A DNA stretch of 64,000 bases from a virus, in IMG/VR virus record IMGVR_UViG_3300035181_001974; one strand, given 5' to 3'. Both the position numbers and the translations under genes were made by a program. Below, piece after piece: positions 903 through 62,879 of the stretch; within the stretch, counting starts at the first letter, position 1; every line of letters starts with the position of its first letter. Under the pieces are notes generated by a model. That model made no database searches. It saw nothing but the letters and a program-made list of their open reading frames with translations, and was not told the DNA's origin.

Positions 903-924
903 CCAGTCACAGCAAGTAACCAAA

Positions 925-24061: not shown

Positions 24062-24156
24062 GGACCCGTGGTGTAACGGGCATACACGGTGTTGCTGTTC
24101 CTCCATGTCAGGAGGTTACGGGCACCCGACAGGGCGGTTCGATCCCGCCGGGTCCA
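24062..24156 (+). tRNA. long (about 95 nt) class II-like tRNA, anticodon unresolved
   Basis: perfect acceptor GGACCCG/CGGGTCC, D GTGT/ACAC, variable-arm hairpin CGGGCACCCG, T-arm GGCGGTTCGATCCCGCC; 11 extra nt before a CCTCC/GGAGG stem with 6-nt loop ATGTCA. Confidence 0.35.
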
Positions 24157-24161
24157 CTAAT

Positions 24162-27739: not shown

Positions 27740-27920
27740 TCTGATTAGATCGGGACTTAAGAAAATGAGTGTGAAGAGTGCGGATTCCCAGAATAGAGAG
27801 GAAACATCTCTGCGTTCATGTTGATCATGTGAACCGGAATCCACGGGATCACAGGCTTGAAAATTTTCGCATGCTGTGTCCCAATTGCCACAGTCAAACA
27901 CCTACCTACTGCGGTAGAAA
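27740..27920 (+). pseudogene. frameshifted remnant of an HNH (homing-type) endonuclease
   Basis: CEECG zinc-finger motif in one frame followed in a different frame by HVDHVNRNPRDHRLENFRMLCPNCH (HNH core); stops interrupt both frames. Confidence 0.4.
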
Positions 27921-27921
27921 T

Positions 27922-28001
27922 GCCAGAGTGGTGGAACGGCAGACACACTCCGTTTAGAGCGGAGCGCCAAAAGCGTGCGGGTTCAAATCCCGCCTCTGGT
28001 A
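27922..28001 (+). tRNA. tRNA-Leu(TAG), class II
   Basis: acceptor GCCAGAG/CTCTGGT, D GTG GAACGGCAGA CAC, anticodon stem CTCCG/CGGAG, loop TTTAGAG, variable arm, T-arm GCGGGTTCAAATCCCGC, CCA encoded. Confidence 0.55.
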
Positions 28002-28059
28002 CCAGAATGAAGAGATCTTCGTAGAAGTAACCACTCGAGTTGGGTTGGCGCGTGATGCC

Positions 28060-28150
28060 CACCCCCTGTAGGTGAGCGCAGGTTGGCCTCCCAATGGCTC
28101 AGCGGCAACAGCACCCATCTCATACGTGGGGAATCGTGGATTCGAGTCCC
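28060..28150 (+). tRNA. tRNA-like element, unresolved
   Basis: T-arm-like CGTGGATTCGAGTCCCA; acceptor not resolved; preceded by AGTAACCA motif. Confidence 0.2.
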
Positions 28151-28246
28151 ATCTCAACAGGAACCATCATGACAGACTGATCTCTCTTCAACGTCCAGGC
28201 TCTACGTGAGGGTCAGACGGTCAAGTTTCGCCCACACGGGAACAGT

Positions 28247-28480
28247 ATGGTCCCGCGGATCTGCAGCGGGCAGCTGGTCACGGTCGCCCCTGTCACGGAC
28301 GAAACGTTGGTCGAGGTTGACGACGTTGTCCTGTGCAAGGTCAACGGCATCCAGATGCTTCACAAGGTGTCAGCTATCGGCAGCGATGGTCGCTACCAGA
28401 TCAGCAACAATCACGGCCACATCAACGGTTGGTGCACGAGGAAGACCGTCTTCGGCATCCTCGTTGCCGTGGAGGACTAA
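28247..28480 (+). CDS. hypothetical small protein upstream of prfB
   Basis: 77-aa ORF. Confidence 0.4.
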   Translation: MVPRICSGQLVTVAPVTDETLVEVDDVVLCKVNGIQMLHKVSAIGSDGRYQISNNHGHINGWCTRKTVFGILVAVED

Positions 28481-28481
28481 C

Positions 28482-29151
28482 ATGGAAACTGTCATCATCG
28501 AGATCAGGGCCGCCGAGGGCGGCGAGGACGCAAGACTTCTCGTTCAGGAGCAGCTCCGGGCATACGCCAACGCGGCGGCCCGGAGGGGTCTTTGAGGCGA
28601 CTGTAATCGATGATCGACCAGGGATGGTGATGCTCTCTGTCTCCGGCCCAGGAACCCTGCAGACCTTTGCAAATGAAGGCGGCGGGCACAGGTGGCAGCG
28701 CGTTCCACCGACAGAAAAGCGTGGTCGTGTGCAAACGTCGACAGTGACGGTCGCGGTCTTAAACCCAGACACCGTCATCGGCCAGGCACTAGACCCCCGT
28801 GATGTGGAAATCACCACTGCCCGAGGCTCGGGTCCGGGCGGCCAAAATCGCAACAAGACAGAGTCGTGCGTCATCGCGGTCCACAAGCCCACCGGCTTTC
28901 AGGTTCGCATTGACAACGAGCGCTCGCAGCACCAGAACCGGGCGATGGCCTTCAAGGTCTTGGCCGCTCGCCTCTACGAGGCTGAGTCTGAACGGCTCTA
29001 CCGCGAGCGCTCCAACGAGCGCAAGCAACAGGTGGGCTCAGGTCAGCGCGGCGACAAGGTACGAACCTACCGGACACAGGACGACCTGGTCACTGACCAT
29101 AGGACAGGTCAGAAGTACAACCTGTCGAAGTGGCTCAAGGGTGACTGGTGA
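28482..29151 (+). CDS. prfB: peptide chain release factor 2 (prfB) with +1 programmed ribosomal frameshift; coding as join(28482..28592,28594..29151)
   Basis: N-terminal METVIIEIRAAEGGEDARL (PCRF) ending at in-frame TGA inside GGAGGGG-T-CTT-TGA-G (SD-like + CUU UGA shift site); +1 frame continues FEATVIDDR..., universal GGQ motif in RGSGPGGQNRNKTESC, RSQHQNR. Confidence 0.85.
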
Positions 29152-29192
29152 ACAGTTGCCGTTCCCTTTGATAGGGTGAGGCGGAGGCCAAA

Positions 29193-29654
29193 GTGTCAGC
29201 AAAGATCGACAGGTTCATCAATGAGTTCGCGTTCTTGTCGAACTTTCATCCATCCACCATCATCGTCGACGGCCGGCATTATGCCACGGTTGAGCATGCC
29301 TATCAGGCTGCCAAGACCCTAGACGAGACGCAACGTGAGATGGTGCGCAAGTCGAAGACGGCGGCCGAGGCCAAGAAGCTCGGCCGCTCTGTCACCCTCC
29401 GCGAGGATTGGGACCAGGTCAAGGTCGACTTGATGCGAAAGTTCGTCAAGGCCAAGTTCGAGAACCCGCTGCTCCGCGAGATGTTGCTGGCGACTGAGGA
29501 TGCTGAGCTCATCGAGGGCAACCACTGGAACGATAAGTTTTGGGGCGTTTGTCGCGGGCAGGGACAGAATTGGTTGGGTCGTATCTTGCAGGAGGTTCGT
29601 GATGAAATCAGGGCCGAAGTTGATGCAGAGTCAGCCCTCGATGACATTCCCTGA
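29193..29654 (+). CDS. NADAR (YbiA/DUF1768) family protein
   Basis: GTG start with GGAGG RBS; FLSNFHPS..HYATVEHAYQAAK..NHWNDKFWGV, a strong YbiA/NADAR signature. Confidence 0.75.
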   Translation: MSAKIDRFINEFAFLSNFHPSTIIVDGRHYATVEHAYQAAKTLDETQREMVRKSKTAAEAKKLGRSVTLREDWDQVKVDLMRKFVKAKFENPLLREMLLATEDAELIEGNHWNDKFWGVCRGQGQNWLGRILQEVRDEIRAEVDAESALDDIP

Positions 29655-30053
29655 CGCCTCGGGTCGCCTGTCACCAAAATACAGGTCACCGCCGAAGAGG
29701 ACCAACACGGGTGGCTACCGCGTCAAGCTCTTTCACGGGCTCGACCAGATTGGTTACGTCAATGTCTGTGAGTCGTTCGTTCGTGCGGCGAAGCGTAATG
29801 TCAAGGTCCTTGAGACGCACTCATTGCTGAAAAAGAATACCGTGGTCGCGGTCTCGGCATCGCCATGTGCGCGGCTGCCATCAAGTATGCCCTCGACAGA
29901 GGCAAGACGATCACCTCGTCATACTCGCCCAGCGCCTTCGCACAGCGCGTGTGGCGTTCCAAGCGATTGTCAGCGATGTTCTTTGTCACGAAGTTTGCGC
30001 GGAGGTGGTGGGTCTCGCTCTCGCGAGCTGTGAACGAAGCGACAGGAGGGTGA
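29641..30053 (+). CDS. GNAT N-acetyltransferase, reading frame split by -1 at an A5G run (29829-29835): programmed slippage, indel or pseudogene
   Basis: frame 1 29641..~29835 (MTFPDAS...KVLETHSLLKK); frame -1 continues EYRGRGLGIAMCAAAIKYALDRGK...SPSAFAQRVW (GNAT motif A/B) to TGA at 30053. Confidence 0.45.
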
Positions 30054-30207
30054 TAGAGTATTCAAGGTGTAGCGATGAAATTCGAAGACGTAAAGAGGGC
30101 AAGTTGGTACGTCCTGGTAGCGACCGGGTACGCGCTTGTGGCCCTCATTCTGGCTACTGCTGCGTTGGGTCTCTATGGCCTCGTGCAGTTATTCTTCAAG
30201 TGATACA

Positions 30208-30290
30208 CGCGGTCGTGGCGGAATGGCAGACGCGCTGGTTTCAGGTACCAGTGGGGCAATACCTGTGTGGGTTCAAGTCCCACCGACCGT
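30208..30290 (+). tRNA. tRNA-Leu(CAG), class II
   Basis: acceptor GCGGTCG/CGACCGT, D GCG GAATGGCAGA CGC, anticodon stem CTGGT/ACCAG, loop TTCAGGT, variable arm, T-arm TGGGTTCAAGTCCCA, CCA encoded. Confidence 0.55.
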
Positions 30291-30315
30291 ACCAATCAAC
30301 GGTAACCTACAGCCA

Positions 30316-30388
30316 GTTAGACATCGAGTGGAGCAATGGTAGCTTACCTGACTTGTACTCAGGGGGTTGCAGGTTCGATTCCTGCCTC
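30316..30388 (+). tRNA. tRNA-like, anticodon loop CTTGTAC (TGT), weak acceptor
   Basis: D GAGC AATGGTA GCTT, anticodon stem CCTGA/TCAGG, T-arm GCAGGTTCGATTCCTGC; acceptor 5/7. Confidence 0.3.
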
Positions 30389-30429
30389 GAATGAAGGTGA
30401 AGTTGATTGAACAGTGACGTGCGCACAAT

Positions 30430-30505
30430 TAGTAACCATCGATGGTGTATGGGTTAACACACCGGGCTCGTGATCCGGGGCAGCAGGTTCGAATCCTGCA
30501 TCAGG
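30430..30505 (+). tRNA. tRNA-like, anticodon loop CTCGTGA (CGT), acceptor unpaired
   Basis: D GTGT ATGGGTTA ACAC, anticodon stem CCGGG/TCCGG, T-arm GCAGGTTCGAATCCTGC. Confidence 0.25.
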
Positions 30506-30574
30506 TGAAGCACGTTTGACACGAGAAAGATCGCATGACTTCCACCAAAGGAGGCTATCACGTTAGCAAGAATT

Positions 30575-30648
30575 TCTCCCCGTAGCTCAGCGGATCAGAG
30601 CGCGTGTCTCCGAAGCACGAGGTCGTGGGTTCAAATCCCACCGGGGAG
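30575..30648 (+). tRNA. tRNA-Arg(CCG)
   Basis: perfect acceptor CTCCCCG/CGGGGAG, D GCTC AGCGGATCA GAGC, anticodon stem CGTGT/GCACG, loop CTCCGAA, T-arm GTGGGTTCAAATCCCAC, CCA encoded. Confidence 0.6.
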
Positions 30649-30656
30649 GCCAACTA

Positions 30657-30733
30657 TGCCGCTGTATCCCCTCGGTTTCCTAAACCGTTGAAAGGGTAGC
30701 TGGATGCACGTGGGTTCGAATCCCTCCAGCGGT
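30657..30733 (+). tRNA. atypical tRNA-Arg(CCT)-like: no D-arm at normal position, 22-nt region after anticodon arm
   Basis: acceptor GCCGCTG/CAGCGGT + GCCA, anticodon hairpin CGGT TTCCTAA ACCG, segment TTGAAAGGGTAGCTGGATGCAC, T-arm GTGGGTTCGAATCCCTC. Confidence 0.35.
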
Positions 30734-30743
30734 GCCACCATCA

Positions 30744-30818
30744 CGCCCCCGTATGCCGCGTGCCTTCGAAGCACGAGAAAGCTAACGGACACATGCAGGT
30801 TCGAATCCTGTCGGGGGT
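30744..30818 (+). tRNA. atypical tRNA-Arg(TCG)-like: 5 nt between position 9 and anticodon stem, 18-nt post-anticodon region
   Basis: acceptor GCCCCCG/CGGGGGT + GCCA, anticodon arm CGTGC CTTCGAA GCACG (near-identical to Arg(CCG) at 30575), segment AGAAAGCTAACGGACAC, T-arm GCAGGTTCGAATCCTGT. Confidence 0.35.
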
Positions 30819-30825
30819 GCCATCA

Positions 30826-30902
30826 TGCCCCTGTATCGACTCTGCCTTCTAAGCAGGTGAAATCGTAATTGGACACATGCGAGTTCGACTCTCGCCAGGG
30901 GT
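30826..30902 (+). tRNA. atypical tRNA-Arg(TCT)-like, same architecture
   Basis: acceptor GCCCCTG/CAGGGGT + GCCA, anticodon arm TCTGC CTTCTAA GCAGG, segment TGAAATCGTAATTGGACAC, T-arm GCGAGTTCGACTCTCGC. Confidence 0.35.
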
Positions 30903-31065
30903 GCCAGTGTAACTCGAGCGGTCGGTATGGTATCTTGAATCAAGAGGCCACGCATGGCGAAGGCAAAAGCGATTTCCGGTCGTCTCCTAAGAATGGAACG
31001 AGTTTGAACGAGGTTGGAGCTGTCGCCCTGACGGGGCCACGCTTCACCTGACCGAGGCAGACCAC

Positions 31066-31257
31066 GTGGCATTCGAGAAGGACTATTGGGCCAAGATGCT
31101 CAAGGAGGTCCTAGATGAGTATAACCGACCCAGCGGCAGCCCCAAGATCATCGATGTTGATTCGGACATGTACAATCGCATCAAAGAGAGCCACAATGGC
31201 ATCTGGTTCCGGCAGATGGACTACTCGAAGCTCCTTCGGGAGATGAGGGCCATGTGA
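31066..31257 (+). CDS. hypothetical protein
   Basis: 63-aa ORF, GTG start. Confidence 0.3.
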   Translation: MAFEKDYWAKMLKEVLDEYNRPSGSPKIIDVDSDMYNRIKESHNGIWFRQMDYSKLLREMRAM

Positions 31258-31442
31258 AGAAGCTAATCGTCACGGTGATTGCGATTGCGACCCTCGCTGT
31301 CGCTGGTTGCTACACGGAATGGGACATTCCCAAGGTGCGACGCCGCGATCCTTGCACTCGTCTTCTCGAAGAAGGTTATGTCTACGTCAACCCCACGTGT
31401 CGCTATCCAGCGCCACCTCCACATCCAAAGTCACCTGACTGA
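31254..31442 (+). CDS. small lipoprotein
   Basis: MKKLIVTVIAIATLAVAGC signal with lipobox; ATGTGA overlap with upstream ORF. Confidence 0.4.
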   Translation: MKKLIVTVIAIATLAVAGCYTEWDIPKVRRRDPCTRLLEEGYVYVNPTCRYPAPPPHPKSPD

Positions 31443-31460
31443 AGAAGGAAACGGAATCAC

Positions 31461-31790
31461 ATGAACCTGAAGGCTACCAAGAAGCTCAACAACGTCCGTA
31501 AGTTCACCGGCGGCGGCCCGCGGCCCGATCTGCGCAAGCTGCGTCAAAAAGAGGCGAAGGAACGCCTCACGGTGTGGCAGAAGCTGTCGCCTCGGGAACA
31601 GCTCGCCAGCCTCGACGGCCGGCTTGGCAAGGGTGTTGGTGCCCAGAAGCAGCGCGCCCGGATCGCGGTGGCTCTCGCAGAGTCCAAGCCGTTGACCGGC
31701 ATTGGCAAGCGAACTGCGCCCGCTGAGCAGGTGAAGCAGAAGGCGAAGGAACGTCGCGCACAAGAAAAGGCGGAGCGCCCCAGCAAGTGA
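31461..31790 (+). CDS. Lys/Arg-rich basic protein
   Basis: 109-aa highly basic ORF (KKLNNVRKF, KQKAKERRAQEKAERPSK). Confidence 0.4.
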   Translation: MNLKATKKLNNVRKFTGGGPRPDLRKLRQKEAKERLTVWQKLSPREQLASLDGRLGKGVGAQKQRARIAVALAESKPLTGIGKRTAPAEQVKQKAKERRAQEKAERPSK

Positions 31791-31948
31791 ACTGAACCTC
31801 GAACTTCCGATACTTATCAAGGCCGGTTATGCGCCCGCAAGACCTATCAACTCCCAAGACGCGCAAGCGTCCGAGATTCGGCGAAGAGCCGAGGGGGAAG
31901 CCCGTGCCGAAAGGCACGAGACCGATCCTTGACAAGCCGGAGGACACC

Positions 31949-32335
31949 ATGAGTGACGTGAAGCAGGTCATCGTCGTACGAAAGGACCTGAACATGAAAA
32001 AGGGCAAATTGGCCGCCCAGGTCGCCCATGCTTCGATGAAGTTTCTCGTTGACAACAACGAAGCGCAACGTGGAGACGAGGTCGTCATCAAGCTGACACC
32101 CGCAGAGGCCACATGGTTGTCGGGTTCCTTCACCAAGATCGTGGTGGGTGTGGATTCGGAAGATGCCTTGAAGGACCTCATCTTCAAGGCAGAAATTGAG
32201 GACGTCGAGGTGCATCCCATCATCGACGCCGGAAGGACAGAGTTCAATGGAGTTCCGACATTGACTTGTGCAGCCTTCGGACCATGCGAGGGTGCGCTGC
32301 TCGACAGGATCACAGGTAACCTGAAGTTGATTTGA
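31949..32335 (+). CDS. peptidyl-tRNA hydrolase, PTH2 family
   Basis: KQVIVVRKDLNMKKGKLAAQVAHASMKF and IDAGRTEFNGVPTLTCAAFGP match the PTH2 signature; RBS GGAGG. Confidence 0.7.
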   Translation: MSDVKQVIVVRKDLNMKKGKLAAQVAHASMKFLVDNNEAQRGDEVVIKLTPAEATWLSGSFTKIVVGVDSEDALKDLIFKAEIEDVEVHPIIDAGRTEFNGVPTLTCAAFGPCEGALLDRITGNLKLI

Positions 32336-32364
32336 GGCGAGCGGGGGTGCTATCCCCCGCAATC

Positions 32365-32447
32365 GGAGCATAGTTCAGCGGTAGAATGCCTGGTTTACAC
32401 CCAGGAGGCCCATAGGGTTCACGGGGGTTCGAATCCCTCTGCTCCGA
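32365..32447 (+). tRNA. tRNA-Val(TAC)-like with long variable region
   Basis: acceptor CGGAGCA/TGCTCCG, D GTTC AGCGGTA GAAT, anticodon stem CCTGG/CCAGG, loop TTTACAC, T-arm GGGGGTTCGAATCCCTC. Confidence 0.4.
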
Positions 32448-32460
32448 CCCGAACGAACTT

Positions 32461-32547
32461 GGAAGCGTGCGAGAGTGGTTTATTCGACCGGTTTGCTAAA
32501 CCGGAGGGTTTGAAAGGGCCTCGGGGGTTCGAATCCCCCCGCTTCCG
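32461..32547 (+). tRNA. tRNA-Ser(GCT), class II
   Basis: perfect acceptor GGAAGCG/CGCTTCC, anticodon stem CCGGT/ACCGG, loop TTGCTAA, long variable arm, T-arm GGGGGTTCGAATCCCCC, CCA encoded. Confidence 0.55.
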
Positions 32548-32552
32548 CCATC

Positions 32553-32804
32553 ATGCAGACGATTTGTCCCAACTGCCGTCATGAGGTCATTGCCAACTCG
32601 GCACCCGTGCGTGGGCTAAGCAATGACGGGACCGAGATTTGGCTGTGCCTCAAATGCCCAGTCATTGTCTGCGGAAATCCCATCGATCTCGGGAATGGTA
32701 ACAGCGTTCCTTGCTATGCAAGCCACCTCGAGAAGGCCCATCCAGAAGTCTATGGCCTCAAACCTGGGCCCACGAAAGGTGGCAAGAAAAATAAGAAAAA
32801 GTAG
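32553..32804 (+). CDS. small zinc-ribbon protein (paralog 1); ends at TAG
   Basis: CPNCRH...CLKCPVIVC...basic tail GGKKNKKK. Confidence 0.45.
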   Translation: MQTICPNCRHEVIANSAPVRGLSNDGTEIWLCLKCPVIVCGNPIDLGNGNSVPCYASHLEKAHPEVYGLKPGPTKGGKKNKKK

Positions 32805-32818
32805 AGTGTGGTATATTG

Positions 32819-32899
32819 GAGGATTGGTAGAGTGGTTTATTCGACCGGTTTGCTAGACCGAAGGGTCTGCAAGGATCATGGGTTCAAATCCCCGCTTCC
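32819..32899 (+). tRNA. degenerate second copy of tRNA-Ser(GCT) (possible pseudo-tRNA)
   Basis: anticodon arm CCGGT TTGCTAG ACCGA, 3' strand CGCTTCCGCC retained, 5' acceptor strand diverged (GGAGGAT). Confidence 0.3.
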
Positions 32900-32904
32900 G
32901 CCGG

Positions 32905-33105
32905 ATGATCATTCCCTGTCCAAGCTGTAGTTCGAAGGTTGAATTAAAGAGAGTGCGTCCGTCCGCTGGCACGCCTCTGACACGTCAGAAGTGTGGATCT
33001 GCATCAAGTGTGCAGTGATCGTCTGCATCGATTGTTACCACGAACACTCACGAAAAAAGCACCCGGAGACGGTGAACGAAATCAAGAAGCCGAAGAAGAA
33101 GTGAC
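32905..33105 (+). pseudogene. zinc-ribbon protein paralog 2, needs a -1 frame change near 32975 to align with paralog 1
   Basis: MIIPCPSCSSKVELKRVRPSAGTP in one frame, SDTSEVWICIKCAVIVCIDCYHEHSRKKHPETVNEIKKPKKK in the -1 frame. Confidence 0.35.
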
Positions 33106-33107
33106 TT

Positions 33108-33194
33108 GGAAGGTTTGGGCATTGGCAGGCCCATCGGTCTTGAAAACCGACATAGGTGATGAGCCTATTGCGAGTTCGACTCTCGCACCTTCCG
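33108..33194 (+). tRNA. tRNA-Ser(TGA), class II
   Basis: acceptor GGAAGGT/ACCTTCC, anticodon stem TCGGT/ACCGA, loop CTTGAAA, long variable arm, T-arm GCGAGTTCGACTCTCGC. Confidence 0.5.
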
Positions 33195-33244
33195 CAAGTT
33201 AGAACAGGCGCTTTACACCATTTACATGCAAAGCATGATTCTAA

Positions 33245-33472
33245 ATGCCTCAATGTGATTATGGATGTGGCAACGAAGGAGTGAAATTCTTCATAAGCAC
33301 AAAACGCTGGTGTTGCAACACTAGTGTCAATGCATGTCCCGCTAAGAAAGAACGAGATGCTTCACATAAACGAGGCAAGAATCCCCTTGAGGGTCGTGAA
33401 CATCCACGCGGAATCTTAGGAAAGAAAAGTTGGAGTCACGGGCAGACAACTTCTCCCGAAGTGCGCGAGTAA
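33245..33472 (+). CDS. Cys-rich hypothetical protein inside a low-GC insert
   Basis: 75-aa ORF CDYGCGNEG...WCCNTSVNAC in a visibly AT-richer about 450-bp segment. Confidence 0.25.
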   Translation: MPQCDYGCGNEGVKFFISTKRWCCNTSVNACPAKKERDASHKRGKNPLEGREHPRGILGKKSWSHGQTTSPEVRE

Positions 33473-33582
33473 ATTAGGATAGCACTCACGAATAATCTTA
33501 ATTGTCGTGGCATAGCCTCCTCTCCTGAAAAGGATGTCGTTCGACGACAACGTATTCGTGAAGCAGCTAAACGTGACGGAAA

Positions 33583-33657
33583 TATTGGAGGTTATCGCAA
33601 AGGTAGCGGGGAGGGCCCCAAGGGTTCGAATTCCTCCTCTTCCGCCATAGTTACTGG
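33583..33657 (+). tRNA. tRNA-like gene, unresolved
   Basis: T-arm-like AAGGGTTCGAATTCC and 3' CTTCCGCCA end; 5' half not resolved. Confidence 0.2.
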
Positions 33658-33659
33658 AC

Positions 33660-34043
33660 ATGAAGATTACCCTTGGCAAACTGAGGAACCTCATTAAAGA
33701 GGTTGTCTTGGCAGAATCGTATCCGACTTGGGATAAGTCGACCCGTAAGCAGCAGATTGAGCCTGAGCCTGAGTATTCGGACCTCTACGACGAAGAAGGC
33801 TACGATTACATGGATGATGACATCGTGGAGCCTCCTCTAGAGAATCCTCCGCTCGATGGTGAAGTCTCGCCCGAAGAACCCGCGAGCCCGTATGAGGACA
33901 TGGACCCACCCACCAGGATCCCGTTGAAGGGCGGCGATGAGGTTGATGCTCTGACCGGATGGAAGAATATGTTGAAGTGGAAGCCTGGTCAGCGCGCGGC
34001 AGCAAAGAACTCATACAACCGACGTTTGAGGCGAGCAGGTTGA
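33660..34043 (+). CDS. hypothetical protein, paralog family (N-terminus MKITLGKLRNLIKEVV), acidic middle
   Basis: 127-aa ORF; N-terminal 17 aa resemble ORF 25370..25756. Confidence 0.45.
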   Translation: MKITLGKLRNLIKEVVLAESYPTWDKSTRKQQIEPEPEYSDLYDEEGYDYMDDDIVEPPLENPPLDGEVSPEEPASPYEDMDPPTRIPLKGGDEVDALTGWKNMLKWKPGQRAAAKNSYNRRLRRAG

Positions 34044-34057
34044 GGGACGCAGGTTAC

Positions 34058-34129
34058 AATAGCACAGTGCAGGTGTAGTTCAGTAGTAGAACATCTCGTT
34101 GCCAATGAGATGGTCGTGGGTTTGAATTT
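34058..34129 (+). tRNA. tRNA-Gly(GCC)-like with weak, AT-rich T-stem
   Basis: perfect acceptor GCAGGTG/CACCTGC, D GTTC AGTAGTA GAAC, anticodon stem TCTCG/TGAGA, loop TTGCCAA, T-loop TTTGAAT, CCA encoded. Confidence 0.4.
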
Positions 34130-34153
34130 TATCACCTGCTCCAAAATTCAAGT

Positions 34154-34224
34154 GCGGGTCTGGTATAGTGGTTGTGCCCTAGCCTTCCAAGCTAGAGAGA
34201 TCGGTTCGATTCCGGTGACCCGCT
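34154..34224 (+). tRNA. tRNA-Gly(TCC)
   Basis: perfect acceptor GCGGGTC/GACCCGC, anticodon stem CTAGC/GCTAG, loop CTTCCAA, T-arm ATCGGTTCGATTCCGGT, CCA encoded. Confidence 0.55.
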
Positions 34225-34368
34225 CCAGCAAGTAATCACCACCAAGGCCGTCCCCAATGGCCTACATGTGAAAGCTTTTGTGATCGTGGCGTAGTGGTAT
34301 CGTACCACCGACGATCTAGGGCTATCGATGACATCGATGGCGACGAATGTTTTTCTGTGAAGAAAGTC

Positions 34369-34986
34369 ATGAAATCATATCCCTCAATCCCCTACGCCAC
34401 CGAGTGCCGAGTCCCAATCGTCGCCTTCGACAAGCTCGACGGGTCCAACGTCCGCGCCGAGTGGTCGCGCAAAAAAGGCTTCTACAAGTTCGGCACCCGC
34501 ACGCGGCTAGTGGACGCATCCGATCCTGTCTTCGGTAAGGTGCCCGGACTGATCAACGACAAGTACGGCAAGGGCATCGACGAGGTGCTCAAGGAATCGA
34601 AGTGGGTCTCGGCCTGCTGCTTCTTCGAATTTTGGGGGCCCAATAGTGCCTTCGGCATGCACGACCTCAAGGAAGACCAGACGGTAACCCTGATCGACGT
34701 GGCGCCCTTCGGCGCCGGCATTCTGGAGCCTGAGCTCTACCTGAAGTTGTTTGGTCACCTCGACCACGCCAAGGTCTTGTACGAAGGCGAAGTGACGGAA
34801 GCCTTCATAGAGAGCGTTCGGGACGGTTCGCTGCCCGGCATGACCTTTGAAGGCGTCGTCTGCAAAGGCAAGAACGACAAGAAAACCAAGGCACCCGTGA
34901 TGTTCAAGCAGAAGTCGCGGGCCTGGTTCGACAAGCTGAAGGCTTACTGCGGCGACAATAACGAGTTGTTCCGGACTCTACGGTAA
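34369..34986 (+). CDS. small nucleotidyltransferase-superfamily RNA ligase-like protein (KxDG)
   Basis: motif I FDKLDGSNVRAEW, downstream EFWGPNS and EGVVCKGKNDKK (motif IV/V-like); true start likely ATG 34369 (MKSYPSIPY). Confidence 0.55.
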   Translation: MKSYPSIPYATECRVPIVAFDKLDGSNVRAEWSRKKGFYKFGTRTRLVDASDPVFGKVPGLINDKYGKGIDEVLKESKWVSACCFFEFWGPNSAFGMHDLKEDQTVTLIDVAPFGAGILEPELYLKLFGHLDHAKVLYEGEVTEAFIESVRDGSLPGMTFEGVVCKGKNDKKTKAPVMFKQKSRAWFDKLKAYCGDNNELFRTLR

Positions 34987-34994
34987 CATAACAA

Positions 34995-35067
34995 CCGCCC
35001 GGGTCGGAGTGGTCCTCCGAGCGCGTCTTATAAGCGCGCCAAGCCGGTTCAATTCCGGACGGTCGGA
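34995..35067 (+). tRNA. tRNA with anticodon loop CTTATAA (TAT; Ile-UAU-like)
   Basis: acceptor CCGCCCG/CGGTCGG (6/7), D TCGG AGTGGTCCT CCGA, anticodon stem CGCGT/GCGCG, T-arm GCCGGTTCAATTCCGGA. Confidence 0.4.
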
Positions 35068-35105
35068 CCGTTGAAGTACACGTGGGCATGGAGTAGAATC
35101 ATCCC

Positions 35106-35495
35106 ATGGCAGATCGTCCTGACGTGAAGGTAGCACTTGCAAAGTTGGTTATGCGTCATGAGAGGCTAATTAACGCCCTGTCTGACGGTTTCTTCGACGT
35201 TGTTAAGCTGCTGATTCCTCAGGTTGAGAGGTGTAACGCAGGGGAGTGCAGTGTTCCGGCGACAGTCCGGCACAAGCGCCTCAACGTTGCCATGTGCGAT
35301 CATCACTGCGCGGCGGCAATCGTCAATGCTGAAAAGAACCTCATCAAGTCACAGCCAAGAGACACCCTCAACTCAATCCGAGGGACCCTGATGAAGGAAG
35401 AAGATTGGGACGACGTTCCCAATGCCGAGAGCATCAGGCGACTCACGGATTACCTAGGATTGGTGGGCAACTCTTCTAGCCACACGATCAATTGA
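35106..35495 (+). CDS. hypothetical protein
   Basis: 129-aa ORF. Confidence 0.4.
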   Translation: MADRPDVKVALAKLVMRHERLINALSDGFFDVVKLLIPQVERCNAGECSVPATVRHKRLNVAMCDHHCAAAIVNAEKNLIKSQPRDTLNSIRGTLMKEEDWDDVPNAESIRRLTDYLGLVGNSSSHTIN

Positions 35496-35504
35496 GGGAA
35501 CACC

Positions 35505-35966
35505 GTGAAAAAAATCCGCATTGAGTTGAAGAACAAGGCGTTGGGCAAGCCCTTCAGGTTCTTCGATTCTGCCGAGGCGCTCTACCTCTGGCTAAACGAC
35601 GTGGGTGCAGGTCCCGATCCAGATGGCTCGTCAGTGGTGACGTTGTTGCCCGGTGACTTTCTTGAAGTTGAGTGGCGTGGTTGTGAGTTCGCTCACGAGG
35701 GAGCCGATCGCTATCGACGTCTCGACTACGTGAGGTTCGCCAAGGGCTCACCGACCAAGAACGCCTCTGGGCTGGTTGTCTCAGTCGATCACGGTTGGGT
35801 CGCTGATGATACGTTCATCTTTCGCGATATTGAAGACGAACTCACGCGCACCAGGCTGCTGACCTCTGAGGCTGAGTGGCGCCTCGATTTGGATGCTCTG
35901 TTCCAGGACGGCAGCGACGATCCAGATGAGGAGGATCCTGATGGAAGCGACGTTGAAGACGGGTGA
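35505..35966 (+). CDS. hypothetical protein with acidic C-terminus
   Basis: 153-aa ORF, GTG start, DDPDEEDPDGSDVEDG tail. Confidence 0.4.
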   Translation: MKKIRIELKNKALGKPFRFFDSAEALYLWLNDVGAGPDPDGSSVVTLLPGDFLEVEWRGCEFAHEGADRYRRLDYVRFAKGSPTKNASGLVVSVDHGWVADDTFIFRDIEDELTRTRLLTSEAEWRLDLDALFQDGSDDPDEEDPDGSDVEDG

Positions 35967-36236
35967 TCTGGTCAGATTCATCGACATGTATGAGAGGACT
36001 CATGCCGAGGCTATCATCGTCAAGCGCTTGACAGAGGCGGACTTCGTCACCCATCGCTTCGCTTGAAGCATGATACAGTGATGATCGTCCTCGTTGAGAC
36101 GATGCCAAAGTCTACCAGATACTGCGCGACGAAATGCAAATGCAGCCGAGCGATGATCCCGGCGGGCTATTCATCGTACTCAACCGCGCAGAAGATCAGT
36201 GGTCGCTGTGTCTAACCTCTAACGGCATCTACGCAA

Positions 36237-36860
36237 TCAAATCTTGTTCCTTGATCGCGGTTGCAGCGGAGGATATGGGTGTGGCATCGGCTTCGACTGG
36301 TGCACAATGTGTCGCGCAATCACCTTGACGTCAGGGTGTTTGTCCTGCAGGGCGCGGACTGCCTCAACATTCTTGCTCGAGTCATCAAAGAACTCAATCA
36401 AGTGCAGGTCATCACGCACGATGCGGGCATCGATCCAATTGGCTTTGGCCTGCGGGTTGGAGGTGCCCAGAGCAATGACCTCAATCCCGTCAAATCCTGC
36501 TTGATGCAGGAACTGATGAATGGGCGCTGTCGCGTGGCGTGCTGTCAGGATGACGACACCACTAGGTCCGTACTTGTCGTAGATGTTCTTTAGGACGCGG
36601 CCCGTCCAGACGTAGGCCTTGGGCTCGATCAACTGACCAAACTCAGTGAAGTCAAACTGCTCGTCGGGCGTAGGCTGGTAGACAGCAAATTCTCCCGGCA
36701 ACAATGACTTCCGCGAACCATCGGGTCGAATGACCCAGACCTTGGAACCTGTCTGCGCCAGAGTGTCATCGAAGTCGAACACACGCAGTTTTCGCGGGCC
36801 GATGACTTCCAGGACGAGACCCTCGACGCACTCTTTCAAGAGTTTCGTCTTGGATTGCAT
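36237..36860 (-). CDS. HAD-family polynucleotide 3'-phosphatase (T4 Pnk phosphatase-domain-like); no kinase P-loop seen
   Basis: DxDxT motif LRVFDFDDTLA, downstream VVILTAR and IEFFDDS motifs; start taken at the internal Met (MQSKTKLL). Confidence 0.55.
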   Translation of the reverse strand: MQSKTKLLKECVEGLVLEVIGPRKLRVFDFDDTLAQTGSKVWVIRPDGSRKSLLPGEFAVYQPTPDEQFDFTEFGQLIEPKAYVWTGRVLKNIYDKYGPSGVVILTARHATAPIHQFLHQAGFDGIEVIALGTSNPQAKANWIDARIVRDDLHLIEFFDDSSKNVEAVRALQDKHPDVKVIARHIVHQSKPMPHPYPPLQPRSRNKI

Positions 36861-36937
36861 GTATAATCGTACATGGTCTCGACGCAGTGTATTAGTCCGT
36901 CCCGGCATGGTATGCTAGAGTAACTAGGAGGCATGAG

Positions 36938-38209
36938 ATGAAGCCGTTGGTGTTGGAGTACCTGCGTTCCCATACGTTCCGTGAGCTCGAGGACGAGCAC
37001 GGTGTCTGTGCGCGGCCCAACTCGCGCTTCGATAAGTTCTCACTCAACTATGATCAGATCTTGGCGAAGTCGGGCAATGCCTTGATGGAACAGTGCCGCG
37101 GCATGGTGATTCGTCCATCTCGCGAGCAGACGGAGCAGTTCCTCCACGATGAGGCCCGGCGTGGTGGCGCGCCTCTGTCGACAGCAAAGTGGCGCGACCG
37201 CGTCGTAGGCGACTGCGAGCTGTTGGCCTGGCCCATGAATCGCTTCTACAACCACGGCGATGTCGCGGCCGCGGGGGTCGACTGGTCGGATCCCGAGCTC
37301 CGCGTCTACGAGAAGCTCGATGGCACGTGTTGCATCGTCTACTGGGACGAACTTCATGGTCAGTGGCACGTCGGTACGCGGTCGGTTCCCGAGGCTGACC
37401 TGCCGATCCGCAAGGATGACATGTCGATCGGCAACATGACGTTCCGCGACCTGTTCTTCAAGGCCCTGATCGAGACCCGTGAGGCGAACTCGGGCCAAAA
37501 GCTAGACTGGGTTCCGAGCGACTTCGATCAGGTCGTTCATCTCAACAAGGAACTGACGTACGTCTTCGAGCTAACGAGCCCGCACAACCGCATCGTGGTT
37601 CGCTATGACGAGCCTCGTGTGACGCTGTTGGCGATTCGTCACACGGCATCGGGCAATGAATCGGTCATCGAGGAGCTGCAACTGCAGCACGTCAACCGGC
37701 CGCAGCGTTGGAAGTTGTCGGAACCGAAGGCGCTGGCAGCGTTTGTTGAGGCGGCGGACCCATCAAAGTTGGAAGGCGCGGTCGTCGTTGACTCGAATTT
37801 CAACCGTCAGAAGGTCAAGTCTCGGGCCTGGGTCCTGTCTTCCAAAGCGAAGGACCTAGTGACTGTCTCGAAGCGATCCGCAGTCGAGGCCATCATCCGC
37901 GGCACGATTGATGACGTCATCCCGTTGGTCGAGGCCGACGTGGCTGGGGAGCTGCGTTCGATGCAGGCTGCGGTGCGCGAGTATCTCATCTCTGTCGATC
38001 GCAACTTCGAGGCCTGGCGTGATTACGCAGCGGGTTCGCGGAAGCTCTTCGCTGAGAAGGTGATGCAGTCCAACGATTGGGCGGCGCCCTACTTCAACTT
38101 GTGGGAAAGCCGTGCGGCCAATGCCCGCGAGTGGTGTGAGTTGATGGCGTCCAAGGAAAAGCTCAACGCCTCGTCCTACGACACCATCCTGAATAAGATC
38201 GGCCGCTGA
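36938..38209 (+). CDS. ATP-dependent RNA ligase (Rnl-type)
   Basis: motif I YEKLDGTCCIVYWD, 423 aa, further nucleotidyltransferase motifs (FELTSPHNRIV, EGAVVVD); RBS TAGGAGG. Confidence 0.7.
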   Translation: MKPLVLEYLRSHTFRELEDEHGVCARPNSRFDKFSLNYDQILAKSGNALMEQCRGMVIRPSREQTEQFLHDEARRGGAPLSTAKWRDRVVGDCELLAWPMNRFYNHGDVAAAGVDWSDPELRVYEKLDGTCCIVYWDELHGQWHVGTRSVPEADLPIRKDDMSIGNMTFRDLFFKALIETREANSGQKLDWVPSDFDQVVHLNKELTYVFELTSPHNRIVVRYDEPRVTLLAIRHTASGNESVIEELQLQHVNRPQRWKLSEPKALAAFVEAADPSKLEGAVVVDSNFNRQKVKSRAWVLSSKAKDLVTVSKRSAVEAIIRGTIDDVIPLVEADVAGELRSMQAAVREYLISVDRNFEAWRDYAAGSRKLFAEKVMQSNDWAAPYFNLWESRAANAREWCELMASKEKLNASSYDTILNKIGR

Positions 38210-38225
38210 AGGCTGAACACAACCG

Positions 38226-38268
38226 GGGGTATTACGCGAATATTCGTGGGTGCCCCCGTGTTCCATTT
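38226..38268 (+). terminator. putative terminator hairpin after RNA ligase
   Basis: ACCGGGGG ... CCCCCGTG stem followed by TTCCATTTGG. Confidence 0.25.
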
Positions 38269-38310
38269 GGGCCTTCCCACGGGCCCGGAATGTGTTACGG
38301 TGGTTAGAGG

Positions 38311-60417: not shown

Positions 60418-60898
60418 TCCAACAATGTATCAACGTTTCTGCGCGAAGTTCATCGAGCCACCAACCCAGTGAATGAAGTACTCCTGCTCTGTCTCGTGAT
60501 ACATCGGTCCACAGGGCACCATGCGCCATGTACCGCCATAGCGATGATACTCATGACACAGATGATAACGTTGAAGCGGTTCTTCTGGCTCATCGCGCCG
60601 GAGTCGAAACTATTCAGCGAGCCTCTCTAGACCAGAGTTGTTGTAGAAGGCTGGATCACTCACGGAGCTCAAGCATTTGCTCGAGGCTACAACGCTTGCC
60701 GCAGTGATCACAGATAAAGGCAGTTTCCATGACGCTCCCGAAGGGACTTGAACCCTCAACGCATGGTGTTAGAATCCGTCACTCTGCCATTGAGTTACAG
60801 GAGCAGTGCCCCGAGTGGGAGTCGAACCCACGATCGCGGTTTTAGAGACCGCAGCTTTAGCCCGCTAAGCTACCGAGGCAAACCTCAAAATTGTACGG

Positions 60899-61507
60899 TC
60901 AGTAGCAGCACTTGTTTCTCCGTCTCGGCTCGGACCAGGTCACGCAGCGTCTGGGGGTGATTGAGATAGGTGCGGGCGTCAGAGTCATCATGACGTCGAA
61001 CAACGGAAAGTACTTCTCGCGGGTCTCTGCGACCTGCTTGACACGGAACTCCTTAGAGGCTGCCCCCAACGTCCTGAGATTGTCGAGCCGATCACGTGCC
61101 TTGATGAACGGACGCCAGTCGGTCGACATGTTGAAGCACTCAAAATAACCTTCCTCGGGCACCTTGTTCAAAGTCTTGATGATCTCGATGACATCGGTGC
61201 CGAAGCAGCGCTCGATCAACACGGGCGGCAGGTTGGGAGCGTCTTCCGCCACGTCATGGAGCAACGCAGAGATTATCATCTCTGACTTGACGATCTTGGC
61301 CTTGTCGATCAGGACGATGGCCACTTGGCGCACGTGCTCGAAGTACCTGACGGGATCACCGTGGTCGTCCAATTCCTTTCGAACCTACGCGCGGTTGCCA
61401 TACTTTGCCATCGTGTAGGCATGCTGCACGTTGAGGATGACGCTCGGGGCTAGGAACGAATCCAAATGCCTGAAGAAACTTTCGCGATTTCCGTTGCCAT
61501 GATTCAT
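60899..61507 (-). CDS. RelA/SpoT-type HD hydrolase (small alarmone hydrolase-like) interrupted by an in-frame TAG at 61385-61387
   Basis: HD motif ISALLHDVAEDAP and upstream YFEHVRQVAIVL; ATG 61505-61507 ORF hits TAG between ..AKYGNRA and VRKELDDHG.., aligning with the conserved Gln of the H.GQ.RK motif. Confidence 0.5.
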
Positions 61508-61548
61508 GGCAAGCAAAACGGGCGGTGAATTTCACCGCCCGCCCTTGC

Positions 61549-61905
61549 TCAACCGATTCGTTCTCCCCAGGGAACTCCCATACACGTGGCAAGTGTAACT
61601 GTGCCCGTCACCGGGTCATGTCCTGCTAGAAGCATTCCGTGTGATTCAACGCCCATCATCTTGCGAGGCGCAAGGTTGACCACGGCCAACACCCGAGTGC
61701 CGACCAACATCTCCACGTGGTAGCTCTTAGCGATGCCGGCCATAATGGTGCGATAGCCGATCTCGGATCCAAAGTAGACCTCGAGCTTGACAAGTTTGTC
61801 GCTCTTGGGCACTGCCTCTGACTTAGTGATTTCGCCCACACGAATATCGACCTTCAAGAAGTCATCGAAGGTGATTGTGTCGGGCGCCTTGTGTTCGTCG
61901 CTCAT
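61549..61905 (-). CDS. tRNA-binding domain protein (Trbp111 / CsaA / EMAP-II-like)
   Basis: FLKVDIRVGEITKSE...KLVKLEVYFG...VGTRVLAVVNLAPRKMMGVESHGMLL classic OB-fold tRNA-binding signature. Confidence 0.7.
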   Translation of the reverse strand: MSDEHKAPDTITFDDFLKVDIRVGEITKSEAVPKSDKLVKLEVYFGSEIGYRTIMAGIAKSYHVEMLVGTRVLAVVNLAPRKMMGVESHGMLLAGHDPVTGTVTLATCMGVPWGERIG

Positions 61906-62261
61906 GACAGTTCCTTGAGCGCCAGTGGCAGGTTCTTACAGAGCTCTGCCGTCTTGGGATGTGGCTCGATGGCGATCGCCGTGATGGCGCCTCCCACGTT
62001 AGGTTCACGGAAAGCACTCCAACGCAGGCCATGGTCCTTGGCAGCGGTGATAAGACGCATCAGCTCTACCTCATCGGCCACTGACAGCAACGCGAGGTAG
62101 TTAGAGTTGGTAAACCACTCACCATCGCGATCAGGATGATCAGCCGTGAACTGTCGAATGGCATGGCAAGACTGCACGGCCTGGTAACCAGGCGCAATGT
62201 CTCGCCGCGTGACGAGGTACAATTTATCCCCCGTCTTAACCTTGTGGTTTCCACCACTCAT
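61902..62261 (-). CDS. second PTH2-fold (peptidyl-tRNA hydrolase 2-like) protein
   Basis: KLYLVTRRDIAPGYQAVQSCHA and NVGGAITAIAIEPH parallel PTH2 motifs; start at internal Met MSGGNHKV directly after the upstream stop. Confidence 0.45.
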   Translation of the reverse strand: MSGGNHKVKTGDKLYLVTRRDIAPGYQAVQSCHAIRQFTADHPDRDGEWFTNSNYLALLSVADEVELMRLITAAKDHGLRWSAFREPNVGGAITAIAIEPHPKTAELCKNLPLALKELS

Positions 62262-62644
62262 TTTTCGAGCCTTTTTTCCGTGGGCTCGAGAAGGGCCTGC
62301 ACCGCCTCCACCGTGAGCTTTTTTGCCTCCCAAGGAGGCATGTGGGCGAGCATCAGCTCGTGAATCCTTGCGGGACTGGGTCGATTTACGTTTGAGCAAT
62401 GTTCAATCCTCTCATACGGGATGCCGCGAAGCAAACCGTAAGCAATCAGGTGCTCCCTGTTGAAGGTTCCAATCCTTCGCTTTTCCTGCCACAGCGAATC
62501 ACGTCGCTTGCCGCTCGTCTTGCGGATACGATTGTGGATCGAAACGCCGGTGGCCTGCAGACCGCGGATCTTGGCGCGAAGTACGCGCAAATAGATGTTC
62601 TTCATGATGTCCTCTCTTTTCTTTCTGAAAGTGCACTCAATCAC
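62258..62644 (-). CDS. hypothetical basic protein
   Basis: 128-aa ORF. Confidence 0.35.
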   Translation of the reverse strand: MIECTFRKKREDIMKNIYLRVLRAKIRGLQATGVSIHNRIRKTSGKRRDSLWQEKRRIGTFNREHLIAYGLLRGIPYERIEHCSNVNRPSPARIHELMLAHMPPWEAKKLTVEAVQALLEPTEKRLEK

Positions 62645-62879
62645 GGGTGAGGTAAGAGCGCGAAAAGGAGGACCTCGCGGCAGCTAATGCTCGCGGAGAA
62701 TCATCTGTGGATAGTTCTGCGTATACATGACGTACATGGCGATGCCTTTGTATTGTAAATACAACACAGGTGGCGTCTTGTACAGGTCCCTAAAACTTCT
62801 GTAATCTTTGCACATAAAGGACACATGTTGATGTCAAATTCGTCTTTTATGTACAAAGATTGACACAGAGGGCTTAAAC

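Follow-up and report, generated by a model that had tools for sequence, protein, structure and literature searches.

The question raised by positions 27915-38300 of a 64,000-nucleotide stretch of viral DNA (IMG/VR record IMGVR_UViG_3300035181_001974) is whether the translation- and RNA-related genes lying there among tRNA genes make up one consolidated system, and what kind of release factor is encoded with them. All coordinates given below are those of this whole 64-kb stretch of phage DNA (the window). In a first-pass annotation the region was described as a consolidated counter-defence island encoding release factor 2 (RF2), a peptidyl-tRNA hydrolase, two RNA ligases and a T4 Pnk-like phosphatase. 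The protein-coding genes named in it were all found where it had placed them. The release factor proved to be of another type, a derivative of RF1 without domain 1, produced by what appears to be a programmed +1 frameshift and belonging to a family that is widespread in huge phages.

Identification of the release-factor gene

The gene is present in two overlapping parts. The frame-0 part (28482..28595, + strand) begins with the ATG at 28482, comprises 37 codons (METVIIEIRAAEGG...RRGL) and ends at the TGA at 28593-28595; the +1-frame part (28594..29151, +) has 185 codons and a stop, and carries the decoding loop with the tripeptide PPT, the GGQ motif and domains 2-4 of RF1. Around the end of the first part lies a +1 frameshift cassette, GGAGG-GGT-CTT-TGA-G (28582..28596, +), made up of a Shine-Dalgarno-like GGAGG (28582-28586), a 3-nucleotide spacer, a slippery CUU and the stop codon. 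Joined across this site, the product is a protein of 222 amino acids.

Based on homology searches, the joined protein belongs to the class I release factors of the RF1 type. It matched the Pfam domains PCRF (2e-19, positions 101-194 of the 194 in the profile) and RF-1 (2e-30), and among the NCBIfam models it scored 219.2 bits with prfA, 135.4 with prfB and 95.9 with PrfH. The scores lie under the curated cut-offs (400 bits for prfA) because only positions 105-330 of the 347 in the prfA model are covered. Comparison with solved structures (PDB) gave the same ranking, with 160 bits for RF1, 102 for RF2 and 68 for PrfH. The codon-reading tripeptide is PxT in RF1 and SPF in RF2; here it is PPT, and GGQ is present. 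Further RF1 determinants, the Gln of QRVP and the Thr of QTS, are retained, short deletions occur in domain 2, and in the RxHTS segment the His beside the conserved Thr is changed to Gln. A hidden Markov model (HMM) built from 33 bacterial loci detected no RF1 domain 1 in the six frames of the window, and the full-length RF1 HMM found exactly the two gene pieces. On the strength of these scores, the tripeptide and the empty domain-1 search, the factor was assigned as an RF1 derivative lacking domain 1, in place of the RF2 proposed earlier. Identity with PrfH was likewise rejected, the score being well under both that for RF1 and the PrfH cut-off (TIGR03072, 166.65 bits).

The short frame-0 peptide is itself part of the release factor. 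It matches positions 109-145 of the bacterial RF1 HMM, its 37-codon segment is 59-89% identical to the counterparts in nine other viral loci (L010-L018), and the core (I/V)EIRA(A/G)EGG is conserved in this part across the wider family. Reading of the TGA as tryptophan in this phage was considered and discarded: the zero frame past the TGA does not resemble a release factor, and TGA ends the best-supported genes. The 79 open reading frames (ORFs) of the window terminate with TGA (47), TAA (21) or TAG (11), no split genes were seen, and the phage uses the standard code.

Directly upstream lies an ORF of 77 amino acids (28247..28480, +) with no Pfam, NCBIfam or PHROG match, which is kept in this position in relatives (tblastn identity of 50-75% in L002, L026-L028, L051 and L054).

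Conservation of the frameshift cassette

The same split was found in two of four independent assemblies of this phage, both of them assemblies whose retrieved stretch spans the gene. The nine viral loci L010-L018, in which identity to the protein falls from 74% to 45%, all shift after codon 37 at CTT TGA. Altogether, 58 distinct shift contexts were collected from the loci examined. The CTT is invariant, and GGAGG stands at -8 to -4 in most of the contexts. The stop at the shift site is TGA in 47 of the 58, TAG in nine and TAA in two; the next base is C in 66%, otherwise G or A, and T does not occur there. The position-specific consensus is CGGAGGnGT CTT TGA C. Uninterrupted members also exist (proteins of 221-229 amino acids, and loci L033, L041, L052, L069, L073, L086 and L090), and in these the two parts are fused in frame without GGAGG, as in one example where RRRGF is encoded by CGC CGC CGC GGC TTC.

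The recurrence of the split in assemblies, in the nine loci and in the 58 contexts, the RF1 homology of the frame-0 peptide and the fused members without GGAGG together argue that the +1 shift is programmed. The first-pass annotation had called it canonical, which holds for the cassette itself, a prfB-type GGAGG-GGT-CTT-TGA; its position is a different one, at codon 37 in domain 2. Gene callers yield two ORFs of 37 and 173 amino acids, as a pseudogene or an assembly error would, and this explanation can for practical purposes be dismissed: the split is identical in independent assemblies, and 58 distinct sequences, some with a protein identity as low as about 45%, keep the site, both halves being conserved at the protein level.

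The choice of stop codon at the site is evolutionarily labile. In a rough neighbour-joining tree, TAG-type sites are interspersed with TGA-type sites, and the stop has switched many times. No link was found between the shift-site stop and either GC content or local stop-codon usage, nor between TGA- or TAG-type and the tripeptide motif.

Distribution and variants of the family

In IMG/VR, a family-alignment search recovered at least 389 relatives, most of whose contigs measure 100-467 kb, and nearly all members have the tripeptide PPT/PxT. More than 100 protein-database clusters cover the post-shift part only, which means that annotation overlooks the whole gene. For cellular genomes one genome per species was searched (185,579 bacterial and archaeal species) and the 80 best matches were considered. 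They comprised one probable phage contig with the shift, binned in a Hydrogenophilales metagenome-assembled genome (MAG), and matches at 36-45% identity; the 46 checkable loci among the latter have an in-frame extension of about 119 amino acids upstream, as in ordinary full-length RF1 with domain 1. Judged from these 80 matches, the family would be restricted to phages. The deposited phages that carry it are solely the metagenomic huge-phage genomes of Al-Shayeb et al. (LR745208, LR745206 and LR756504).

Several variants of the interruption were encountered. In five phages of 40-47% GC (L088, L089, L095, L100 and L104) an in-frame TGA stands exactly at a Trp codon conserved in bacterial RF1 (KGW), to be explained either by Trp decoding or by regulated read-through. 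Several in-frame TGAs are found in low-GC huge phages (L024, L025, L074, L093 and L094), where TGA is probably read as Trp, and L031 and L032 have an in-frame TGA or TAG after codon 37. In a subgroup whose members start with EIRPGEGG the interruption is near codon 46, about nine codons later; L106 (NCIF01000008.1, the Hydrogenophilales MAG) has a CTT TGA C +1 shift there, and L042, L061 and L097 have an in-frame TGA. The gene family thereby has a second, independent site. The decoding loop varies as well, with PPN, SPT and APN among the variants. In L023 (LR745208.1, 55468-72122, from a 485-kb huge phage) the CTT TGA C shift is present, the loop is shortened (QRT-SNGRIHSS) and the PxT is gone.

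Comparison with known release factors

The cassette closely resembles that of bacterial prfB in its GGAGG, 3-nucleotide spacer, CUU, a stop that is mostly UGA, and a following base in which C is favoured and T never occurs; as reported for prfB, members without the stop also lack the Shine-Dalgarno-like element. The differences concern the gene and the site. The phage gene is RF1-type without domain 1 and is interrupted at codon 37 in domain 2, whereas the shift site of E. coli prfB is at codon 25/26, in domain 1. Nine of the 58 phage sites have TAG, a subgroup has its second site near codon 46, and a loop with UGA is not self-evidently autoregulatory in an RF1-type gene. A survey of more than 12,000 bacterial genomes (PMC12421855, 2025) found TGA in the prfB motif in 98.6% and TAG never (8,164 prfB genes), saw no evidence of programmed frameshifting in prfA, and took the TGA in prfB as a mark of autoregulation. 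The sequences thus point to a prfB-type cassette that recurs in an RF1-derived phage gene at a non-homologous position.

The likeness to bacterial RF1 lies in the best HMM and PDB matches, PPT, GGQ and the collinear domains 2-4; the phage protein differs in its length (222 amino acids against about 360), in its score (219 bits against the cut-off of 400) and in the missing domain 1, which in RF1 is the domain on the RF3/L11 side. Loss of domain 1 with retention of a decoding-like domain and GGQ is shared with PrfH, a release-factor homologue without domain 1 that is paired with RtcB and linked to RNA repair genes (PMC6514570). The phage factor, however, keeps the RF1 tripeptide and is much closer in PDB to RF1 than to PrfH, and the Pfam or PHROG scans of window ORFs revealed no RtcB. 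Phage versions are not treated in that release-factor review, by Burroughs and Aravind (PMC6514570). Phage RF1 and RF2 have been reported in recoded phages (10.1101/2021.08.26.457843), and the huge- and recoded-phage papers list both without mention of domain-1 loss or frameshifting; the factors of Lak, Jade and Agate phages are also phage-encoded RF1/RF2, and unlike those phages the present one uses the standard code. No description of a frameshifted or truncated phage RF1 was found in the open-access papers searched. The frameshift-controlled, domain-1-less RF1 is apparently an undescribed, widespread huge-phage family.

RNA ligases

Two RNA ligases had been proposed, and both are supported: the downstream one (ligase 2) by Pfam, PHROG and structural matches, the upstream one (ligase 1) by its PHROG match, motifs and predicted fold. 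Ligase 2 (36938..38209, +; 423 amino acids) is of the T4 Rnl1 (gp63) family and has a C-terminal domain. It matched Pfam RNA_lig_T4_1 with 37 bits (4.3e-9; cut-off 28.3), phrog_562 at 8.2e-36 with the match reaching position 365 of 377 in the model, and PDB entry 2c5u (T4 Rnl1) at 3.4e-7 with motifs III, IV and V (E, EG and KxK) aligned; KLDG was read from the sequence as motif I. With the NCBIfam model it scored 55 bits against an equivalog cut-off of 242, the match reaching position 340 of 373, and on this comparison the protein is best regarded as a member of the Rnl1 family and not as an orthologue. Homologues are present in 578 phage records, those listed being annotated as RNA ligase or tail-fibre attachment catalyst.

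Ligase 1 (34369..34986, +; 205 amino acids) consists of a nucleotidyltransferase domain only, with the motifs KLDGSN, FFEFWG, EGVVCK and FKQKS of an ATP-dependent RNA ligase. Its Pfam RNA_ligase score (21.4 bits) is below the cut-off of 27, which many close homologues pass; the PHROG 'RNA ligase' (phrog_548) was matched at 3.5e-11, covering 4-238 of 341, and among the homologues the catalytic Lys, Glu, Glu-Gly and Lys-x-Lys are invariant. Sequence-only searches of PDB with this protein and with the phosphatase described below, as single sequences or profiles, gave nothing useful, so fold prediction was needed for both. The AlphaFold2 model of ligase 1 (pLDDT, the predicted local confidence score, of 92) is a single domain, nearest to the Naegleria RNA ligase, T4 Rnl2 and the trypanosome editing ligase. 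It has the nucleotidyltransferase fold with motifs I, III, IV and V that marks the Rnl2/Rnl5 type, and neither the C-terminal domain of Rnl2 nor the extra N-terminal domain of Rnl5, for which a protein of this length is too short. The model thus suggests a minimal Rnl2/Rnl5-like ligase. The closest homologue from a cultured phage is a 'hypothetical protein' encoded by Xanthomonas phage XacN1, a phage credited with three Rnl2 paralogues (Iyer et al. 2021).

HAD phosphatase and the missing kinase

A stand-alone HAD-superfamily phosphatase (36237..36860, -; 207 amino acids from the Met at 36860) is encoded divergently from ligase 2, and the HAD and Rnl1-family genes form such a divergent pair in L001, L003-L006 and L186. 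Of the T4 Pnk-like 3'-phosphatase domain described earlier, the general HAD fold was borne out, with the DxDxT nucleophile motif and motifs II-IV; the P-loop 5'-kinase that goes with it in T4 is neither fused nor adjacent. Its homologues number 618, of which nearly all lack a Pfam domain, and the four HAD motifs are invariant; no homologue was detected by tblastn in cultured phages. Some members of the family are remote from any ligase gene: the homologues L187 and L188 lie in a T4-like structural module (gp23, gp13, gp15 and PAP2 phosphatase). L189 and L190 lie two genes from a Zeta/KTI12-like P-loop kinase. The substrate of the family may not be the same everywhere, and for the present protein a putative role as RNA 3'-phosphatase is reasonable.

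The absence of a 5'-kinase partner, suspected in the first-pass annotation, was confirmed for the 64-kb window: GxxxxGK[ST] occurs in no ORF of at least 80 amino acids, and Pfam scans of the larger ORFs found no P-loop kinase. A cyclic phosphodiesterase was also not found in the window. The statement that the enzymology of tRNA healing and sealing is complete has thus to be withdrawn. Lacking a kinase, the window genes alone could not seal the 5'-OH ends that PrrC/RloC-type nucleases produce.

PTH2, NADAR and other genes of the region

The peptidyl-tRNA hydrolase of the PTH2 type (31829..32335, +) is secure, with a full-profile Pfam match (PF01981, 3.9e-29; 101.6 bits against 23) and an NCBIfam arch_pth2 score of 87.2 bits against the cut-off of 82. 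A NADAR-domain protein (29193..29654, +), absent from the first-pass annotation, was identified by Pfam (PF08719, 3.1e-29; 102.7 bits against 35.1) and by phrog_1017 (1.6e-45). Just upstream of PTH2 is a basic ORF of 109 amino acids (31461..31790, +) without a family match, which is 39-50% identical by tblastn in L004, L005 and L008. Between ligase 1 and the HAD gene (35106..35966, +) are a Cys-rich ORF of 129 amino acids and an ORF of 153 amino acids with an acidic tail. Neither has a family match; they are syntenic in L003-L006, L008 and L009 and are candidates for additional parts of a repair module.

A second translation- and NAD-related cluster was noted outside the region (60731..63964, -). 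It contains two tRNAs with the anticodon CUA, an HD_4 hydrolase, a tRNA_bind protein (Trbp111-like, 2.3e-22) and a PTH2-like protein so divergent that BLAST shows no similarity to the other PTH2, all within 60731..62399, together with a dual-specificity phosphatase and a nicotinamide phosphoribosyltransferase truncated at the edge of the window. The two tRNAs are adjacent (60731-60879, -), and the one at 60806-60879 has the textbook anticodon loop CUCUAAA (Rfam, 60.4 bits). The presence of amber-suppressor-type tRNAs beside an RF1-type factor in one genome is puzzling, the window genes being without obvious TAG recoding.

Organisation of the region

Nine related loci (L001-L009) share the order NADAR, PTH2, ligase 1, two ORFs, HAD, ligase 2 and tail-fibre genes. 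The order is loosely kept: ligase 1 is missing from three of the nine and HAD from four, NADAR and PTH2 occur together in six (L002 and L005-L009), and the release factor is present in one. Seen from the release-factor family, 41 of 80 loci have at least three tRNAs within 8 kb, and NADAR accompanies the factor in 11, ligase 1 in seven, PTH2 in six, ligase 2 in two and HAD in one. The genes of the region are on both strands in several transcription units with tRNAs in between, and the second PTH2-like gene and the tRNA-binding protein are 24 kb away. The variable gene content and the weak linkage to the ligases suggest that the tRNA zone is a collecting place rather than one co-inherited system.

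The 'consolidated island' of the first-pass annotation is therefore real in that its genes exist and keep their synteny in several relatives, and is looser than claimed, with independent losses, both strands in use and tRNAs separating the genes. RNA repair and ribosome rescue in jumbo phages have been described by comparative genomics, and countering host attack on tRNA has been proposed for them (Iyer et al. 2021, PMC7824862). The Rnl1-family and Rnl2-like ligases, HAD, PTH2, NADAR and many tRNAs of the present phage resemble both that repertoire and T4 Pnkp with Rnl1/Rnl2; the differences are the HAD without a fused or nearby kinase, the bare domain of ligase 1 and the interleaving with tRNAs. 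A counter-defence function is plausible, given these enzyme families beside tRNAs, although from T4 biology and the work on jumbo phages it is not new. Overall, the island is looser, less complete and less novel than had been stated.

The phage and its tRNA zone

The window has a GC content of about 55% and contains phage genes for baseplate wedge, gp25-like and tail-fibre proteins, two sigma factors, an ATP-dependent DNA ligase and an exonuclease. No close relative was found among 50,697 deposited phage records, and a near-identity DNA search of cultured phages gave tRNA-sized matches only. Two window proteins are present, identical in sequence, on a metagenomic contig of 309,481 bp; the HAD protein, one of the two, was also located in four other independent assemblies. 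The source is an uncultured myovirus-type phage of roughly 309 kb, and the region is the end of its tRNA-gene zone.

With ARAGORN the window yielded 46 tRNAs for 19 amino acids, none of them for Tyr, and Rfam at the gathering score also gave 46 matches, largely the same genes. In the region itself ARAGORN called nine with default and 12 with relaxed settings, and Rfam added three or four weak tRNA-like units (30658-30903 and 28095). The total is thus nine confident tRNAs, or 12-16 counting weak ones, and the figure of about 20 given previously is too high. The first is tRNA-Leu(tag) (27922..28004, +; ARAGORN, and Rfam 50.5 bits). It is followed at 30209..30652 (+) by tRNA-Leu(cag), tRNA-Thr(tgt), a weak tRNA-Thr(cgt) at 30438-30506 and tRNA-Arg(ccg), called by ARAGORN and Rfam. 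Three tandem degenerate tRNA-like units (30658..30903, +; Rfam 27.8, 36.5 and 33.8 bits, in an E-value search only) start straight after the tRNA-Arg(ccg) and may be decaying duplicates. Next, at 32363..33195 (+), are tRNA-Val(tac), tRNA-Ser(gct), a zinc-finger-like ORF of 83 amino acids (32553-32804), a weak tRNA-Ser (32817-32904) and tRNA-Ser(tga). Both tRNA-Gly(gcc) and tRNA-Gly(tcc) lie at 34069..34227 (+; ARAGORN, Rfam), and a weak tRNA-Ile(tat)-like sequence (34995..35069, +) was called by ARAGORN with -ps90 and reached a sub-threshold 24.5 bits in Rfam.

Unusual tRNAs were also observed. One of 96 nucleotides at 24062-24157 (+) was called with a four-base anticodon (gttc). The over-long tRNA-Val (88 nucleotides, 32363-32450, +) and tRNA-Asn (87 nucleotides, 289-375, +) suggest insertions or small introns. 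A 'tRNA-Stop(tta)' with the anticodon UUA was called by ARAGORN at 830-905 (+); with A33, no place in the Rfam gathering list and the neighbouring tRNA-Ile as its nearest paralogue, the call is probably misregistered and an ochre suppressor is doubtful. An HNH endonuclease remnant (27778-27957, +) overlaps the tRNA-Leu (Pfam 8.7e-4, below the cut-off), and an ORF at 58621-59322 (-) is homing-endonuclease-like (phrog_3339, 1.8e-7). Judged by these matches, both would be consistent with mobile-element traffic across the tRNA zone.

Proposed function and alternatives

The explanation favoured here, at a rough probability of 0.6, is that accessory genes acting on translation have been gathered singly in the tRNA zone, with no one operon or fixed system, and that among them is an RF1-type factor made through a +1 shift. 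The two ligases would rejoin breaks in tRNA or other RNA whose ends are 3'-OH and 5'-phosphate, and the HAD enzyme would take off 3'-phosphates; for 5'-phosphorylation the phage would have to rely on the host or on a gene in another part of its genome. PTH2 would release the tRNA of peptidyl-tRNA that has dropped off or stalled. The RF1-type factor would provide extra termination capacity at UAA and UAG, independent of RF3. Its dose would be set at codon 38: if the host factor is slow to read that stop (UGA in this phage), tRNA-Leu would slip from CUU to UUU, aided by the GGAGG 3 nucleotides upstream, and the full 222-amino-acid protein would be made, while fast termination would leave only the 37-amino-acid peptide. 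With UGA as the shift stop, synthesis of the RF1-type factor would be gated by host RF2 activity. As a speculation, the extra RF1-type activity may take over termination at UAA and free RF2 for UGA.

Several points weigh against this explanation. With neither kinase nor cyclic phosphodiesterase in the window, repair of HEPN- or colicin-type cuts would be incomplete. Slow termination at UGA would not be relieved by an RF1-type factor, which leaves gating by UGA without an evident purpose, and a strict 'RF2 sensor' would not lead one to expect the TAG or TAA found at 11 of the 58 shift sites or the frequent switching on the tree. The Rnl1-family gene is always beside tail-fibre genes, in keeping with the second role of T4 gp63, which is not catalytic. 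All of the support is computational: the gene identities derive from sequence and predicted fold, and the activities are those expected of the families.

That the region is after all one counter-defence island, in which RF2, PTH2, two ligases and a Pnk-like phosphatase jointly reverse PrrC/RloC-type attack with a private tRNA set, is considered unlikely. All of these enzyme classes except RF2 do lie within 10 kb among tRNAs, the synteny from NADAR to ligase 2 is kept in several relatives, the window tRNAs span 19 amino acids, and the same logic has been put forward for jumbo phages (PMC7824862). The factor is nevertheless of the RF1 type, no kinase is encoded in 64 kb, parts have been lost independently, the release-factor family is weakly linked to the ligases and HAD, both strands are used with tRNAs between the genes, and a second PTH2-like gene lies elsewhere. 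It is somewhat less likely still that the Rnl1-family protein serves mainly in tail-fibre attachment, as in the second role of T4 gp63, with the HAD protein unrelated to RNA. Ligase 2 adjoins LamG-type and 1422-amino-acid tail-fibre-like genes in every related locus extending past the gene (L001-L004, L007 and L008) and in three independent assemblies of this phage, its PHROG family is named 'RNA ligase and tail fiber protein attachment catalyst', and HAD homologues occur elsewhere in a structural module; yet the catalytic motifs of the ligase (KLDG, E, EG and KxK) are all kept, the fibre genes run convergently from the opposite strand, and the gene has a second ligase and tRNAs on its other side. 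In T4 gp63 one role does not exclude the other.

For the release factor, autoregulation of the RF2 kind was considered, in which the factor would read its own shift-site stop (UGA here) through altered or relaxed specificity and so exert true negative feedback. The architecture is that of prfB, where TGA is the mark of autoregulation (PMC12421855); TGA, TAG and TAA interchange between close relatives, which would be easiest if the factor read all three; and the decoding loop varies in the family (PPN, SPT, APN and the deletion in L023) and, in the window protein, by the His-to-Gln change beside the Thr. Since that protein keeps all of these RF1 determinants (PPT, the QRVP Gln and the QTS Thr), the tripeptide is the same in TGA-type and TAG-type genes, and an omnipotent factor of bacterial type is not known, this reading is also a doubtful one. 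The interchange of stops, the variable loop and the members with an in-frame stop in place of the shift are likewise the reasons for a bolder proposal, that the factor reads all three stops and is a natural bacterial-type omnipotent release factor with prfB-like feedback, evolved independently in viruses; the proposal is regarded as improbable. Least favoured of these is a function outside RNA repair in stop-codon reprogramming, together with CUA-anticodon tRNAs as in recoded gut phages. The clean tRNA(CUA) at 60806-60879 with a second alongside, the RF1 and RF2 reported in recoded phages (10.1101/2021.08.26.457843) and the low-GC family members with several in-frame TGAs, some exactly at the conserved Trp codon, speak for it. 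Here, however, all three stops are ordinary terminators and no split genes were seen, RF1 would counteract a UAG suppressor, the tRNAs(CUA) are 32 kb off on the other strand, and no tRNA(UCA) was found in the window, so it is given very little weight.

Significance

The RNA-repair part of the region is one more case of a known theme and chiefly of value for annotation, since gene callers label the HAD and ligase 1 genes hypothetical and split the release factor into two ORFs. The part deserving follow-up is the family of frameshifted RF1 without domain 1. Frameshifting in release-factor genes has until now been regarded as a hallmark of RF2 autoregulation and was reported absent from RF1 genes; the phage cassette sits in an RF1-derived gene, at another position, in at least 58 phage lineages. 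Its occurrence with all three stop codons, and at a second site, is a natural experiment on what the cassette senses. The family is also a source of short, portable +1 frameshift switches, expected to react to the amount of RF1 or RF2, and it is a pointer to viral control of termination capacity in infection.

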